DNA of 37,499 bases from a virus. The notes beneath the pieces are model-generated. The model was not told where the DNA came from and did not search any database. It saw only the letters and a program-made list of their open reading frames with translations. The stretch is taken from the IMG/VR virus record IMGVR_UViG_3300045988_057146, positions 1-37,499 of that record. One strand, written 5' to 3'. The translations under genes and the position numbers were made by a program. Of the stretch, positions 18,135 through 22,804 are shown one piece after another (positions within the stretch are counted from its first letter, which is position 1; each line of letters starts with the position of its first letter).

Positions 18135-19472
18135 TTACCTCCTTAAGTCAATATATCCACTATGGGTTATAAATGTATAGCAGAACGAATCCCAATCATC
18201 ATTGATATTGTTTACGTTCTCATCCTTTGGGATATCTTCCTTTTCATCCCATACTAATTCGCTCAATGCGTTTATTAAGTTCTTACAATGTTCTTCTATT
18301 TTTAATCGTCCTGTTACAAGTAAGATATCAACCGTTATAGGACGGTCTGTAAGCTCATTCTTCTTAACTGGTGCAATTATACTTCCGTCTAATCCTTCGG
18401 CGTAAAAATAAGCTCTAAGCGTGTTTATTAATGTATTAGAAGCACTGTCCGGAAATATCCATTCAACATATCCGTAACATTCAATACATCGCTTATAGAA
18501 CCTTACAAACGCCTTACAGAACTTTGTTGCGTCAATTGAGTTTGACTTTGCCATGTCTCCTTCATCAAGTGCCCACATATAATCCCAATCGTTCGTAAAT
18601 CCTGTTAAGTGCCATGAATACTTTGAACCATTGTCTCCAAAATCAACGCCTATGATTAAATGACTGAACCTTTTCCCTTGTTCTTTCATCTTCTCTTTTA
18701 AATGTTGATATTTGAATAGGTAAGGTTTGCAGTCATTAGCAAAATAAGGGAACACAAGTCCTTCGGCAACCATTCTTTCCCCTAAAATATCTCGCTTGTA
18801 CCATACTGAATTCATGTCGTATTTGTTTTGGATTTCTTCGATTCTTTCTTGGCTCATTGTAGCATTATCAAAGATATTGAAATGCTCATATCTGTACCAA
18901 TCTAATCCCATGAATTTATCTATGTAATTCTTATAAATGTCTGCGTTTGGGTTTGATGGGTTTAAATCCCATAATGTAAATGGATGTACGCTTGCAATCT
19001 GTCTTGCCATCGCTACCTTGATAAAGCTTGTTCTAGAATCATCACAATCGTAATGCTCATTTATTTCGGTCGCTATCCATCCCCCATATGAGTTACCTAA
19101 TATGCTCTTATACGAATCGGACTTTCCACCACCTGTAAATATCACTATCTTTTCGCCTGTCTTTGTTTGGACAAATAGTGCTTCGTTTGATTTGTATTTA
19201 CCCCAACGACATCGTCCACGAAAGATATGCTCTAAGCCGAAACCATTGCAGTCACCTATATTTAATTTCGCATTCGGTAAGCTTGACCCACTCGCTAAAT
19301 GTATTTTATCTTCACATGTTTCCAAATACATTGAAAAGATTATGCAGTGGTCAATCGTTTTACCACTTCGTACCGCTCCTTCTGCTACACTTTGTTTGTA
19401 ATTTAGGGCGGTCTTAATATAGTTCTTATGTTTATCTGAGAATTTCCCCCAAGGAATCGTTCTTGTCATCAT
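18135..19472 (-). CDS. terL: Terminase large subunit (PBSX-type)
   Basis: Walker A-like GAVRSGKT, the right size, and an ATGA overlap with terS. Confidence 0.9.
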   Translation of the reverse strand: MMTRTIPWGKFSDKHKNYIKTALNYKQSVAEGAVRSGKTIDHCIIFSMYLETCEDKIHLASGSSLPNAKLNIGDCNGFGLEHIFRGRCRWGKYKSNEALFVQTKTGEKIVIFTGGGKSDSYKSILGNSYGGWIATEINEHYDCDDSRTSFIKVAMARQIASVHPFTLWDLNPSNPNADIYKNYIDKFMGLDWYRYEHFNIFDNATMSQERIEEIQNKYDMNSVWYKRDILGERMVAEGLVFPYFANDCKPYLFKYQHLKEKMKEQGKRFSHLIIGVDFGDNGSKYSWHLTGFTNDWDYMWALDEGDMAKSNSIDATKFCKAFVRFYKRCIECYGYVEWIFPDSASNTLINTLRAYFYAEGLDGSIIAPVKKNELTDRPITVDILLVTGRLKIEEHCKNLINALSELVWDEKEDIPKDENVNNINDDWDSFCYTFITHSGYIDLRR

Positions 19473-19810
19473 TTTAATAAATCTGCCAAAGGTGTTAAAT
19501 CCTCAATCTCATGTGTCATTGTCTGTTCAACCTTTTCGCTCTGTCCAAGCATTTGTTTACCTAACCAAATAAGCATAGTCGTATTCCCTTTTGAAGCCTT
19601 ATCAAATTGCATACGTCTTAAACTTCTTTTTGAGTGGCTTATACCTCTTTTATATGTCTGACAAAACTTTTTATTTCTTAATAATGTTCTTACCGAACAT
19701 CCTAGAAAATCTGCAATTTCTTCTTGAGTACATCCAATAGAAGCAAGTTTTTCAACTGCTTCATAATCAATCTTTATTCTTGGGCGTCCCCCTGCGTGTT
19801 TCTCTGCTAT
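19469..19810 (-). CDS. terS: Terminase small subunit
   Basis: HTH protein with AEKHAGGRPRIKIDYEAVEKLASIGCTQEEIA. The ATG at 19834 has no SD. ATA 19810-19808 lies 7 nt after AGGGGG and gives the typical (M)AEKHAGGRP N-terminus. Confidence 0.7.
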   Translation of the reverse strand: MAEKHAGGRPRIKIDYEAVEKLASIGCTQEEIADFLGCSVRTLLRNKKFCQTYKRGISHSKRSLRRMQFDKASKGNTTMLIWLGKQMLGQSEKVEQTMTHEIEDLTPLADLLK

Positions 19811-19811
19811 T

Positions 19812-19934
19812 TTAATACCCCCTATAACAATCATATTGATTCAATTGCTTTTTAAGCCTTTGTAATCTTTTTCTTAAATCTCTTTTTCTATATTCTGATG
19901 TCGTGTTTTCTAATTCTTCTTCAACGCTTTTCAT
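19812..19934 (-). CDS. Possible 40-aa coiled-coil ORF upstream of terS
   Basis: MKSVEEELENTTSEYRKRDLRKRLQRLKKQLNQYDCYRGY. The SD is weak. Its stop lies 1 nt before the terS ATA. Confidence 0.25.
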   Translation of the reverse strand: MKSVEEELENTTSEYRKRDLRKRLQRLKKQLNQYDCYRGY

Positions 19935-19953
19935 TTGGCGTAAATGTTCTTCT

Positions 19954-21261
19954 CTAGACGTGTCTTGCTTCTTCTGTTTCAAGTTCTGTAATCTCCTCTG
20001 TTCTTTTTAAGAATGTTACTGAATTATCATATTCGTAAACGATGTCATTATTTTCATCAAATCCTACAGGCTTTAGAACCTTTTCAAAAATCTTGTAAGG
20101 TGATTGTCCTGCTTTTGGTGAATTCCATAAATAATGCAAATAATCCTTCATTGTCATTCCTGCATATTTCGCCCTAGCTTCTGACGTATTTGTATTGAAG
20201 CCAATCGCTTTGTTACGCTCAAAATCTAAGAAGTACATATCCTTTTCAATATCTTTCCAATGTACTCTTCCATGTTTCTTTGCAATTTGTAAAGCTCCAC
20301 TAAAATTTCCTCTTGAGTAATCCCAATTCTTATCTAATGCACAACAACAACAGTTATTCGAGCATTCTTTAAAGTGTGCGTCTGATACATAGAATCTCAT
20401 GCCTAATTCATCACATAGTTCTTTCATCTTTTGAATGTATTTAGCCTTTACTTTTCTGTTAAGTCTTAAATATCCACTTCCATTTGAATGTTTTCTATAA
20501 AAATCTACAATATCAAATCCTGCACATTCACTAATCACATCATAATGCTCCTTAGCTTGCTTAATAGAGCGCATTTCTAAGCAAAAGAACTCTGTAGTAA
20601 CCGCAGTAGCTCCTGCCTTTTTGGCTTCTCTAATTAAATCTAGGTAGGTTTTATCTGATACTCCTACAATAAATGGACGCAACCTTAAAGTTGCACCACC
20701 TTTTGATAATTCAGTGTATTTTTTCATTGCTTCAAGTCTTTTCCTTGGACTTGGTACACCTACTTCGATTTTTCTTGCGTCCTCTTCATCTAGTGTGATG
20801 ATACTAAACTTAACATTCCAATTATCTGCGCCTTTGAACAATTCTTGATATTTAGGGTCGTTAAATACCCATGCCGATTTCGTACTAAAACAGATAGGAT
20901 AGTTAATAGATTTCAAATACTTGAGCATTTCATAGGTTTTACCATATTTCTTTTCATATCCGTCGAATTGGTCTGATAAACCACCATATTGAATAGGACG
21001 TCTGTCTTTAATGTATTTATAGAATTGTGATTTTGTATCTTCTCCACTGAAAATCTTTTTGCATTTCTCAACATTGATACATTTCACATCTTTATTAAGA
21101 TATGCTTCTTTACTTGCACCAATACCTCTTTGATATTGGCTAAAACAATAAACACATCCAAATGAACAGTTGGAATATGTGTCAAATGTTACCGGTAATG
21201 AGCAATCTGCGATTTCTCCTGTCCATCTTGGTGATAAATATGTCTCACTGATTTTATTCAC
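19954..21261 (-). CDS. Radical SAM enzyme (SplB / COG1533-like)
   Basis: CSFGCVYC CxxxCxxC cluster near the N-terminus and a second Cys cluster, CSNNCCCC. The GTG start lies 6 nt after GGAGGA. Confidence 0.75.
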   Translation of the reverse strand: MNKISETYLSPRWTGEIADCSLPVTFDTYSNCSFGCVYCFSQYQRGIGASKEAYLNKDVKCINVEKCKKIFSGEDTKSQFYKYIKDRRPIQYGGLSDQFDGYEKKYGKTYEMLKYLKSINYPICFSTKSAWVFNDPKYQELFKGADNWNVKFSIITLDEEDARKIEVGVPSPRKRLEAMKKYTELSKGGATLRLRPFIVGVSDKTYLDLIREAKKAGATAVTTEFFCLEMRSIKQAKEHYDVISECAGFDIVDFYRKHSNGSGYLRLNRKVKAKYIQKMKELCDELGMRFYVSDAHFKECSNNCCCCALDKNWDYSRGNFSGALQIAKKHGRVHWKDIEKDMYFLDFERNKAIGFNTNTSEARAKYAGMTMKDYLHYLWNSPKAGQSPYKIFEKVLKPVGFDENNDIVYEYDNSVTFLKRTEEITELETEEARHV

Positions 21262-21262
21262 C

Positions 21263-22030
21263 TTATATCCTCCATTTTCTTTTAATAATTAAGTTATTTC
21301 CTCTAATTGTTACCATGTCATCATATTTTCTTTTCAATAAATTTAGATATTGCTTTTGTATGTTTGTGGTTTTATATATTTCATAATATCCGCCTTTTTC
21401 TTTTCCCATTCTTGCTTTATTTGCAATAATGGTATTATTGCGTGCTATAATCTCTCCTTGTCTTATCAATCTAAGACATAGTTCATAGTCATCTAAAATT
21501 TTCATTTTTTCATCATATACAATCTTGTTATTTTTTATAATGAAATTGAATCCACCTTGCAAAAGTGTGTTATACGAATATTTTTCACCTGTCCTATTTA
21601 GCTTTGAAATGTTCATTTTATTGTCGATTGATATTACACCCGCATAATTAATTCCGTTTTTCTGCATAAAATCAAATATCTTTTTAACTTCACGCTCAAA
21701 CTTATTTGTCAAATTTATTAAACGTCCACATTTAGTTTCTGAACATTCATACCATTTTTGAAAGGGCCTTATATCATCATCTAACAATAGTATTTTTGAA
21801 CCATTTTCAAATTGATTTAGACATGTATTCCTATTGAATGATACATACATACCTTCTCTTAAAATGATTCTCGCTCGGCTTCCTAAATTCTGCCTGTAAG
21901 CTTTATAATCATTTGAATCATTTAAACATACAACAATTCTTTCATCTTCAATCCCACATTCTTTTAGTGCGTGATATGTTTTACATTTTGGTCTATGATA
22001 ACTTGCTATTGCATAATAGATGTTATTCAT
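21263..22030 (-). CDS. GT-A-fold glycosyltransferase-like protein
   Basis: N-terminal beta-strand IASYHRP and an acidic LLLDDDI motif suggest a DxD glycosyltransferase. It is translationally coupled to both neighbours. The fold call is tentative. Confidence 0.4.
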   Translation of the reverse strand: MNNIYYAIASYHRPKCKTYHALKECGIEDERIVVCLNDSNDYKAYRQNLGSRARIILREGMYVSFNRNTCLNQFENGSKILLLDDDIRPFQKWYECSETKCGRLINLTNKFEREVKKIFDFMQKNGINYAGVISIDNKMNISKLNRTGEKYSYNTLLQGGFNFIIKNNKIVYDEKMKILDDYELCLRLIRQGEIIARNNTIIANKARMGKEKGGYYEIYKTTNIQKQYLNLLKRKYDDMVTIRGNNLIIKRKWRI

Positions 22031-22604
22031 GCATTAATTCCTTGATGTCGTAGCACACTTTTAATTCAGTTACCTGTAAAAGTTTCTCTAAGAATAGTTG
22101 TTCTTCCTCTGTTTCATATGTAATGATTACACGTTGCTTTTTTAGCATTTCTTCTGAATGTTCGCTAAATGCGTCCATAAGCTCATTATCATATCCTTCC
22201 GCTTCCATATCCTCAGTTAATGCACTAATTTCAAAATCGCCGAATCCGAAATCTCTCATGTCGATTCCGTCAATTTCTTCAAGCTCTTCCATTTCTGTTT
22301 TTAATGCGTCTAAATCCCATGAAGCTTTTTCTGCCGTTTTATTATCTGCAATTCTAAACGCTTTTACTTGCTCATCTGTTAAATCATCTGCAACCACGCA
22401 AGGAACAGTTTCTAAGCCTAATTCTTGACTAGCTTTATATCGTGTATGACCTGCAACAATCACTCCATTTTTATCAATAACAATAGGCACTTTGAAGCCG
22501 AACTCCTCAATAGAATTTTTAACAAATTTCACTGCTCCATCATTGATTCTAGGGTTATTCTCATAAGGCTTTAGCTCATTTAATCTTTTTTCAACAATGT
22601 TCAT
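22023..22604 (-). CDS. ParB-like nuclease (ParB N-terminal) domain protein
   Basis: LKPYENNPRINDGAVKFVKNSIEEFGFKVPIVIDKNGVIVAGHTRYKA is a classic ParB/Srx motif. A strong SD is present. Confidence 0.8.
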   Translation of the reverse strand: MNIVEKRLNELKPYENNPRINDGAVKFVKNSIEEFGFKVPIVIDKNGVIVAGHTRYKASQELGLETVPCVVADDLTDEQVKAFRIADNKTAEKASWDLDALKTEMEELEEIDGIDMRDFGFGDFEISALTEDMEAEGYDNELMDAFSEHSEEMLKKQRVIITYETEEEQLFLEKLLQVTELKVCYDIKELMHE

Positions 22605-22621: not shown

Positions 22622-22648
22622 TTAAAAGAACCGAGACAAACGCTCGGT
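22622..22648 (-). terminator. Terminator-like hairpin between the tRNA-like gene and the late operon
   Basis: ACCGAG/CTCGGT stem with a 7-nt loop, followed by TCTTTTA on the minus strand. It lies about 15 nt before the ParB SD. Confidence 0.5.
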
Positions 22649-22728: not shown

Positions 22729-22804
22729 TGGTTGCAGGAGAAGGATTTGCACCGTTCGACCTCTAGCTAATAAGACTAGTGAGCTACTACTGCTCTATCC
22801 TGCT
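22729..22804 (-). tRNA. Non-canonical tRNA-like gene, anticodon UAU (reads AUA)
   Basis: Hand-folded 76-nt cloverleaf. Acceptor AGCAGGA/TCCTGCA has 6 bp plus an A1xA72 mismatch. U8 is present. D stem is GAGC/GCTC (A11:U24). Anticodon stem is CTAGT/GCTAG with loop CTTATTA, giving anticodon TAT at 22772-22770. T arm is GAA(C)GG-TGCAAAT-CCTTC. A73 and an encoded CCA follow. Odd features are a bulged C in the T stem, G55, a D loop without GG, and U37. Confidence 0.6.

Follow-up and report, generated by a model that had tools for sequence, protein, structure and literature searches.

The 37,499-nt stretch of viral DNA analysed here (IMG/VR record IMGVR_UViG_3300045988_057146, positions 1 to 37,499; hereafter the window) carries on its minus strand a cassette of three genes, predicted to encode a short ParB-like protein, a glycosyltransferase (GT) and a radical S-adenosylmethionine (SAM) enzyme (rSAM). 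As read from the sequence, the cassette heads the packaging/late operon, just 5' of the terminase genes terS and terL (Table 1). A first-pass annotation, made from the letters of the window, had described three coupled genes with an 8-nt overlap and a 1-nt gap, and this arrangement was confirmed: the GT start overlaps the ParB stop by 8 nt (ATGAATAA), and a single base lies between the TAA stop of the GT gene and the GTG of the rSAM gene. The three motifs it had listed, LLLDDDI, CSFGCVYC and CSNNCCCC, were likewise all present.

Table 1. Positions of the cassette, its motifs and neighbours in the window, and of features in related loci (L numbers) mentioned in the text.
Feature	Sequence	Position	Strand	Remarks
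tRNA gene	window	22804..22732	-	Rfam 48.8 bits; 128 nt upstream of ParB
Terminator-like hairpin and T-run	window	22648..22630	-	consensus scan and direct sequence reading; between tRNA gene and strong ParB ribosome-binding site
Short ParB-like gene	window	22604..22023	-	193 aa; ATG start; Shine-Dalgarno (SD) sequence AAGGAGG
GHTR motif	window	22451..22440	-	ParB residues 52-55
Predicted TAGT/JGT-type GT gene	window	22030..21263	-	255 aa
DDD of LLLDDDI	window	21781..21773	-	GT D84-D86
Spore photoproduct lyase (SPL)-like rSAM gene	window	21261..19954	-	435 aa; GTG start; GGAGG 8 nt 5' of start
CSFGCVYC	window	21168..21145	-	rSAM
CSNNCCCC	window	20364..20341	-	rSAM
Spacer open reading frame (ORF)	window	19812-19982	-	40-56 aa, Lys/Glu-rich
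terS	window	19834..19469	-	phrog_309 terminase small subunit; downstream of rSAM
terL	window	19472..18135	-	source name 'PBSX family phage terminase large subunit'
GT, state compared	window	21263-22030		
GT allele B	L003	6001-6762		compared with window
GT deletion	L008	6944-7000		compared with window
Small SPL-like rSAM	L022	9115-9957		
Small SPL-like rSAM	L029/L030	8833-9669		
Small SPL-like rSAM	L038	908-1750		
Small SPL-like rSAM	L053			
ThyX-like protein	L125	1984-2595		203 aa

The product of the first gene matched PF02195 (ParB_N) at 36.3 bits, above the cut-off of 26.3, in agreement with the earlier ParB-domain call, and phrog_620 with an E-value of 1.5e-57. Its domain plan comprises an N-terminal ParB/Srx nucleotide-binding domain (NBD) with a GxxR arginine patch (GHTR), an acidic linker and a C-terminal domain (CTD) of ~40 aa. 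Matches in the PDB (the NBD of Spo0J/ParB, and sulfiredoxin) spanned residues 7-94 only, and no helix-turn-helix (HTH) DNA-binding domain was found in the protein, matches to ParB structures ending at residue 94. A chromosome or plasmid partition ParB was considered and rejected, as TIGR00180 scored 44.9 against a cut-off of 58.45 and the HTH parS-binding domain is lacking; the window ORFs scanned gave no match to the ParA family.

The second protein matched PF20691 (TAGT, 'TET-associated glycosyltransferase') over model positions 4-205 of 205 (E 9e-11; 42.5 bits, cut-off 27.5), and the top PDB matches of its AlphaFold2 model (pLDDT 80) in Foldseek were all GT-A enzymes, namely WrtF, K4CP, LARGE1 and TarP. 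The GT-A assignment first suggested by the DDD motif thus held. Residues R13, R67-N68, D84-D86 and D181-Y-E183 were invariant or nearly so in the family alignment. Phage DNA GT-A enzymes, which are structural homologues of JGT, carry the motif set R...DDD...[E/D]DY/F (bioRxiv 10.1101/2023.12.21.572611), and the match of the window GT to this signature leads to its assignment as a predicted DNA glycosyltransferase of the TAGT/JGT type, encoded by an accessory tailoring gene.

The third protein contains CSFGCVYC, and its C32-x3-C36-x2-C39 cysteines were invariant (100%) in 55 diverse homologues. Its AlphaFold2 model (pLDDT 94) gave SPL as the best solved match in Foldseek (4k9r/4fhc; E 2e-7; TM 0.47/0.59; 17% identity), which bears out the resemblance to SPL noted earlier, and all 16 PDB fold matches with E≤0.001 were radical-SAM enzymes. 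The radical-SAM domain PF04055 scored 20.5 bits, under its cut-off of 29.5; sequence and model taken together, the protein belongs to the radical-SAM superfamily. SPL was not retrieved from the PDB at E≤1 by phmmer or by a profile of the 55-sequence family, and there was no SplB NCBIfam match. Membership of the PA0069 (NF033668) and Rv2578c (NF038135) families was rejected at 70.4 bits versus 360 and 48.1 versus 430, respectively, these being related superfamily members only.

Beyond the SAM cluster, C20 (95%) and C306/C307 (93%) were conserved across the family, followed by C227 and C283 (71%), C305 (35%) and C124 (18%), with C300 and C304 below 20% and the lowest value of the CSNNCCCC stretch at 9%. 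This stretch had been put forward as an extra cluster. As an auxiliary-cluster motif it was ruled out in that form, since C300, C304 and C305 are conserved at 9-35% and only the CC pair, C306/C307, is retained in the family. Cys124 is the sole cysteine of the window enzyme where the H-donor cysteine of SPL might be expected, a placement made without residue-level mapping onto SPL. Thus, while SplB (PDB 4FHC/4K9R) is the best fold match and is itself a DNA-directed radical-SAM enzyme that generates an allylic (C5-methylene) radical of thymine, the window enzyme is ~95 residues longer, has a C-terminal domain with the conserved CC, shows no evident conserved counterpart of the H-donor cysteine and lies in a context of modification rather than repair.

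A further relative is gp53 of Pseudomonas phage M6, a radical-SAM N-alpha-glycinylthymidine isomerase and the only rSAM reported to introduce a modification into DNA (Lee et al., NAR 2021, PMC8989533). The 55-sequence profile matched gp53 at 37.6 bits, and pairwise identity was 18% (E 0.002). GenBank phages gave no match to the cassette region by megablast nor to the GT or the rSAM by tblastn, with nothing at 1e-5 for the latter in 50,697 phage records. Orthology with gp53 was therefore rejected on the low identity, the missing GenBank tblastn match and the lack in the window of an amino acid:DNA transferase (AADT), a kinase and a pyridoxal phosphate (PLP) enzyme.

The ParB-rSAM core and its variable slot

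Homologues of the rSAM numbered 2236 at 90% clustering (1518 cluster representatives at 50%), against 16 for the GT. We assembled 101 rSAM loci from IMG/VR, GTDB genomes (61, found by a contig profile scan with 10 closer rSAM sequences), two contig look-ups and the window, and clustered the neighbouring genes. Among the 78 loci whose upstream DNA reached 3 kb or more, 75 (96%) had a window-type ParB upstream of the rSAM; terminase genes lay downstream in 64 of the 71 loci with sufficient sequence on that side. The slot that separates ParB from rSAM varied. In half of the loci (39/78) it held a P-loop kinase and a protein of 225-330 aa, with or without a GNAT or GATase protein; in 29/78, including the window, it held a TAGT, in some cases along with a HAD/kinase fusion and a cytidylyltransferase; one locus combined kinase/AADT and TAGT, and in nine the slot was empty. 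The kinase profile matched the 5-hydroxymethyl-2'-deoxyuridine (5-hmdU) DNA kinase gp54 of M6 at 87 bits and scored above the Pfam HMUDK cut-off, and 15 of 20 members of the 225-330-aa cluster matched the amino acid:DNA transferase family PF18724 (best E 5e-18); neither pairwise nor profile comparison matched this AADT-like cluster to M6 gp51/gp55.

Fusions were also seen: 9 of 27 selected rSAM homologues of fusion length carried a TAGT domain, and a P-loop kinase3 domain and an FkbM methyltransferase domain were each seen once. A SAM synthetase gene (MetK, ~265-350 aa) adjoined ParB or rSAM in 17-21 loci (L057, L059-L062, L064, L066-L069, L072, L076 and others), a frequency consistent with bulk, stoichiometric use of SAM. 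Almost all GTDB loci came from gut or rumen anaerobes (such as Lachnospiraceae, Eubacteriales, Segatella copri, Prevotella, Bacteroidales, Phocaeicola, Faecalibacterium and Victivallales), a complete genome of Segatella copri among them. In such hosts an O2-dependent dioxygenase would be useless and a radical-SAM enzyme workable.

The same division into a constant core and a variable slot was seen among contigs of the phage species to which the window belongs. They were 97-100% identical in ParB, rSAM, terS and terL, and the GT occurred in three states: allele A, allele B (58% identical) and a clean deletion. What the deletion leaves is 26 nt at the 5' end of the GT and ~31 nt at the 3' end; the latter still contains the SD sequence of the rSAM, and a 9-codon remnant ORF persists. 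ParB and rSAM remained intact in these GT-deleted sister phages, at 98-99% identity, so that the rSAM seems to work without the GT. Thus, while the three genes had been taken as a trio, the gene-neighbourhood survey showed a conserved ParB and rSAM core, the GT being one of a set of tailoring genes that can be exchanged or deleted. The polymorphism of the GT looks like diversifying selection or loss of a glycosylation step, and its allele swapping and deletion resemble an arms race of the type IV restriction kind.

The ParB was then followed beyond the rSAM in 76 IMG/VR loci anchored on it (among L110-L189), of which just seven contained the rSAM. Its NBD was fused or adjacent to an N6/N4 DNA methyltransferase in 31 loci, ParB adjoined a DpdA-like protein and a Vut_1 transporter gene in 10, and in five the NBD was fused to DUF4417, often with a SAM synthetase nearby. 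The window-type NBD is, on this genomic evidence, promiscuous in its partners and appears to mark a pre-terminase 'DNA-modification slot', and we read the ParB as a general helper of primary DNA-modifying enzymes at this position. DpdB is known as a ParB-fold helper of the DNA-modifying enzyme DpdA. The window pair shares with DpdA/DpdB and with ParB-methyltransferase fusions a ParB/Srx-fold protein encoded with, or fused to, a base-modifying enzyme, and differs from them in the partner enzyme and its chemistry.

Some observations on rSAM relatives stand apart from the survey counts. Intein domains occurred in 6 of the 27 long homologues, with LAGLIDADG inteins inserted directly after CxxxCxxC in P0143, P0145, P0167 and P0177. 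In some loci the large rSAM was accompanied by a second, small SPL-like one (278-280 aa; CGCQHDCKYC ... DCCNLR). Among the best viral structural matches of the large rSAM were proteins of ~280 aa, a size akin to that of the small one, from Bacillus phages CP-51 and Goe2. These two phages have 5-hydroxymethyluracil (5hmU) DNA.

Complementary distribution of rSAM, TET/JBP and ThyA

In characterised systems HMUDK, AADT and TAGT enzymes act on a pyrimidine 5-hydroxymethyl group already in DNA, for which the known sources are a ThyA-like dNMP hydroxymethylase together with a phage polymerase, or a TET/JBP dioxygenase (PMC5889632, PMC8989533, PMC8256090). Pfam scans of all other window ORFs of at least 70 aa found no TET_JBP, thymidylate-synthase-like, C5-methyltransferase or DNA polymerase protein, the families returned being those of phage structure, lysis, recombination and regulation only, and no TET-like or ThyA-like ORF was found at E≤1e-3 in six-frame translations of the 101 rSAM loci (1.35 Mb).

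A survey anchored instead on the AADT (79 IMG/VR loci with 9-kb flanks, six-frame ORFs scored with local profiles) separated the possible sources. The rSAM was present in 41 loci, a TET/JBP-like protein of ~263 aa in 14, a ThyA-like protein in 14 and none of the three in 10, four of the last being fragments below 5 kb. No locus held two of them together, when ~14 co-occurrences with the rSAM would be expected if they were independent. ParB accompanied the rSAM in 34/41 loci and the TET/JBP-like protein in 11/14, as well as 4/10 of those with none of the three, and was found with ThyA in 0/14. HRD...H motifs are present in the TET/JBP-like protein, whose profile matched human TET2 (E 3e-7). Gene orders also corresponded, ParB-(GATase)-AADT-(HMUDK)-TET in the one case and ParB-AADT-HMUDK-(GNAT)-rSAM in the other. 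Over the NBD, the ParBs linked to TET (191-211 aa) showed 34-42% identity with that of the window, and they shared its domain plan, with a different CTD sequence, a difference that fits the cognate-pair specificity reported for 5mYOX enzymes and their ParBs. The exclusion, the synteny and the common ParB all indicate that the rSAM takes the functional and positional slot of the 5hmU-generating enzyme, and mutual exclusion with both TET and ThyA is most simply explained if the output is equivalent. The rSAM thus probably supplies 5hmU or an equivalent activated thymine.

The architecture itself has a close precedent. O'Toole et al. (PNAS 2026, PMC13229309) showed that a subclass of phage thymine dioxygenases (5mYOX) needs a short ParB, made up of NBD, linker and CTD and devoid of a DNA-binding domain, to oxidise T in double-stranded DNA (dsDNA), and that 5mYOX clusters encode GTs, P-loop kinases, AADTs, GATases, GNAT, HAD and APH domains and terminases; radical-SAM enzymes are not mentioned there (PMC13229309). 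The rSAM loci share with these clusters the short ParB plan, the terminase adjacency, the order ParB-tailoring genes-oxidase and the accessory set (GT-A GT, P-loop 5-hmdU kinase, AADT, GATase, GNAT, HAD and an APH-like kinase). They differ in that an SPL-like rSAM replaces the Fe(II)/2-oxoglutarate dioxygenase, the two being mutually exclusive, and in their obligate-anaerobe hosts, the other CTD sequence of their ParB and the frequent SAM synthetase. By gene content, the system therefore appears to be a variant of ParB-dependent thymidine hypermodification clusters with a radical-SAM enzyme in place of the dioxygenase. The trio had earlier been considered undescribed; this stood for the rSAM version, which was not found in the literature searched, and failed for the architecture, which is known from such clusters (PMC13229309, PMC8989533). 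A pairing of a radical-SAM enzyme with ParB was likewise not described in that literature, which did not take in Iyer et al. 2013 (PMC3763556).

A proposed oxygen-independent route to 5hmU

The earlier suggestion of a DNA-modification module made just before packaging was strongly supported by context in ~180 related loci, and the cassette would, from its sequence, best be explained as a module by which a temperate Holdemanella phage hypermodifies thymidine after replication and which is expressed together with the packaging genes. We propose the rSAM as the primary DNA-modifying enzyme, acting by oxidation of the thymine C5-methyl group, and the short ParB as its activator or DNA-loading partner. 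We put a probability of roughly 0.6 on the reading, by analogy and sequence, that a ParB-assisted, O2-independent thymine C5-methyl oxidase makes 5hmU and that the GT then glycosylates it to a base-J-like product.

In such a pathway ParB would load or hold the rSAM on dsDNA, or expose the base. The 5'-deoxyadenosyl radical would take a hydrogen from the C5-methyl of thymine in DNA, the substrate we infer, and so give the allylic radical that SPL and M6 gp53 also handle; both act at the C5-methylene position of thymine in DNA (PMC8989533). One-electron oxidation and capture of water at the C5-methylene could then yield 5hmU without O2, in parallel with the hydration of an exocyclic methylene in dUMP hydroxymethylases, water being the presumed source of oxygen. 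Cys20, Cys306 and Cys307 may form a second metal site or serve as C6 nucleophile or redox relay. The TAGT/JGT-type GT-A would put a sugar on the 5hmU hydroxyl to give a base-J-like nucleotide, and in relatives 5hmU would be phosphorylated by the 5-hmdU DNA kinase and substituted by the AADT, with or without GNAT or GATase, or left bare. The two-step logic would be that of the base J pathway of kinetoplastids, in which thymidine hydroxylase (JBP1/2) converts T to 5hmU and a GT-A enzyme (JGT) glycosylates it, except that the hydroxylase would be a radical-SAM enzyme, with a ParB helper, and in a phage rather than a eukaryote.

To our knowledge, all known post-replicative routes to 5hmU or 5hmC in DNA use O2-dependent TET/JBP dioxygenases. 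The wider claim, that the SPL-like rSAM is the first O2-independent DNA thymine C5-methyl hydroxylase, ParB-activated and widespread among phages that infect anaerobes of the gut and rumen, that it constitutes a third route to 5hmU beside ThyA-type dUMP hydroxymethylases and TET/JBP, and that it feeds a JGT-like GT to give a base-J-like nucleotide in the window phage, we consider to have about an even chance.

Several points weigh against this reading. No precedent for 5hmU formation by a radical-SAM enzyme was found, and among characterised phage relatives the closest one, M6 gp53, works as a tailoring isomerase rather than as an initiator (PMC8989533). Net hydroxylation requires a one-electron acceptor and water capture; a canonical auxiliary-cluster (SPASM/twitch) domain was not detected in the rSAM, and beyond the SAM cluster only C20, C306 and C307 are conserved. 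The absence of ThyA and TET from the window holds at Pfam sensitivity, and the surveys were anchored on homologues of window genes with flanks of at most 9 kb, so they are not an unbiased census, and in relatives a distant ThyA or TET beyond these flanks is possible. Finally, in 15 IMG/VR loci a ParB and a canonical TAGT preceded terS, and within 6 kb on each side there was no copy of this rSAM and no TET-like ORF; a neighbouring TAGT is thus no proof of an adjacent 5-hydroxymethyl source.

Of the alternatives, the one that survives best is that rSAM and ParB install some other primary modification (another C5-methylene, a methylthio, methyl or adenosyl adduct, or a change to another base) on which the kinase, transferase and GT act. 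We regard this as possible, at clearly lower odds than the 5hmU reading. Radical-SAM chemistry is versatile, ParB-type partners join varied primary enzymes at the same slot, as seen above with the N6/N4 methyltransferases (31 loci) and the DpdA-like protein with Vut_1 (10 loci), and both the nine loci with ParB and rSAM by themselves and the ParB and TAGT loci that have no visible 5-hydroxymethyl source would fit it. However, the slot kinase is a clear homologue (87 bits) of a validated 5-hmdU DNA kinase, and the AADT family displaces the phosphate ester of 5hmU (PMC8989533), so that kinase and AADT both require C5-CH2-OH; the strict exclusion with two known 5hmU sources also argues against a different product.

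The rSAM could otherwise be a late tailoring enzyme, either an isomerase of amino-acid-thymine adducts like M6 gp53 or an anaerobic stand-in for a flavin-dependent lyase, with 5hmU supplied from elsewhere. The remote homology with gp53 (37.6 bits; pairwise E 0.002), itself SPL-like, speaks for it, as do the HMUDK and AADT genes in about half of the loci, and Lee et al. (2021) interpreted the rSAM genes of metavirome clusters in this way (PMC8989533). The family and gp53 do share an SPL-like rSAM, a 5-hmdU DNA kinase as neighbour and chemistry at the C5-methylene of thymine in phage DNA, which for the window we infer. In contrast, gp53 acts late and needs AADT, kinase and PLP partners in a lytic phage that makes 5hmdU before replication through a ThyA homologue and its own polymerase, unlike the window phage, and the window rSAM is paired with ParB and found in the absence of AADT, kinase, PLP enzyme and ThyA. 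AADT and kinase are missing from 28 other loci besides the window, nine loci hold ParB and rSAM alone, the rSAM stays intact in the GT-deleted sister phages, and TAGT-rSAM fusions exist; the PLP partner is absent, neither the rSAM loci nor the complete window yielded a ThyA or TET source, and the missing tblastn match at 1e-5 in GenBank phages shows that the rSAM is not a gp53 orthologue. We thus consider a late role improbable.

An SPL-type DNA repair enzyme, or one unrelated to its neighbours and placed there because the site upstream of terS is a hot spot for accessory genes, seems very unlikely. SPL is indeed the best structural match, one source labels a homologue 'DNA repair photolyase', and the pre-terminase site is a known insertion hot spot that receives many different genes. 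However, the hosts are anaerobes of gut and rumen, where there is no UV, and many of them (Prevotella, Segatella, Bacteroidales) do not form spores; the family profile fails to retrieve SPL by sequence; Cys124, placed as mentioned without residue-level SPL mapping, is present in 18% of the family only; and the 96% linkage with ParB, the TAGT and kinase fusions and the exclusion with TET and ThyA go beyond what a hot spot would explain. SPL-type repair was thus rejected on ecology, genomic context and the lack of sequence-level membership. As improbable is an RNA target, the adjacent tRNA (as speculated in the first-pass annotation), or a non-nucleic-acid one such as a protein or cell-wall polymer, for while a tRNA gene lies just upstream of ParB, TAGT relatives include GREB1 (one source's name for the GT cluster) and TarP-like GT-A enzymes glycosylate teichoic acid, the tRNA, a tRNA-Ile(UAU) in variant copies, is confined to the window phage species and absent from ~80 other, more distant rSAM loci, ParB, HMUDK, AADT and TAGT are all DNA-directed families, and the terminase position and co-expression fit DNA. 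The tRNA idea was rejected on this restriction to one phage species.

If thymine is oxidised by the rSAM as proposed, phages of strict anaerobes would have a means of hypermodifying thymine with no pathway at the nucleotide level, a question that has so far lacked an answer; the DNA chemistry of radical-SAM enzymes would gain a new type of reaction, and the role of ParB-like activators would extend to a second, unrelated class of DNA-modifying enzyme. Many temperate gut and rumen phages, given thousands of homologues, would then package chemically modified DNA, with bearing on evasion of restriction and CRISPR, on type IV restriction arms races and on biases in sequencing and virome assembly. 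The enzyme might also offer an oxygen-independent tool for 5hmU or base-J-type labelling of DNA.

Other features of the window phage and related loci

The ParB and TAGT loci that lack the SPL-like rSAM (L114, L120, L121, L139, L161, L125 and others) have a ParB of 245-288 aa with a different C-terminal domain, and their TAGT scored 146 bits. Five of them add a ~320-aa rSAM-SPASM protein, and in L125 a ThyX-like protein was recognised by eye from its RHRxxSxxxxSxR motif.

Judged from its gene content, the window comprises a temperate siphophage of ~37.5 kb that is essentially complete. Pfam scans identified an integrase, a CI-like repressor, ERF, SSB, RusA, NinB and a replication initiator, as well as structural genes, a holin and an amidase. 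Window proteins recurred unchanged on a 37,659-bp contig and in genomes of Holdemanella sp. (WP_337527007.1, WP_337618870.1), and by these sequence matches the phage is a prophage of Holdemanella, a strictly anaerobic gut Firmicute.

Upstream of the cassette, the tRNA-like gene noted in the first-pass annotation was recovered by Rfam, while ARAGORN, run on the window, made no call for it; copies in L008, L009 and L014 (89% identical) were called as tRNA-Ile with anticodon TAT. The 19 loci with this tRNA gene all belong to the window's own phage species. The hairpin and T-run that follow it may serve as a boundary or a site of regulation for the cassette and late operon, at whose head they lie. 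At the other end, the rSAM stop and the terS start are 119 nt apart; this spacer carries a short ORF that overlaps the terS start, and the spacer length is conserved among sister phages. Two further window proteins match Lar restriction-alleviation (PF14354) and the ArdC N-terminal domain (PF08401), and the phage may hold additional anti-restriction functions.

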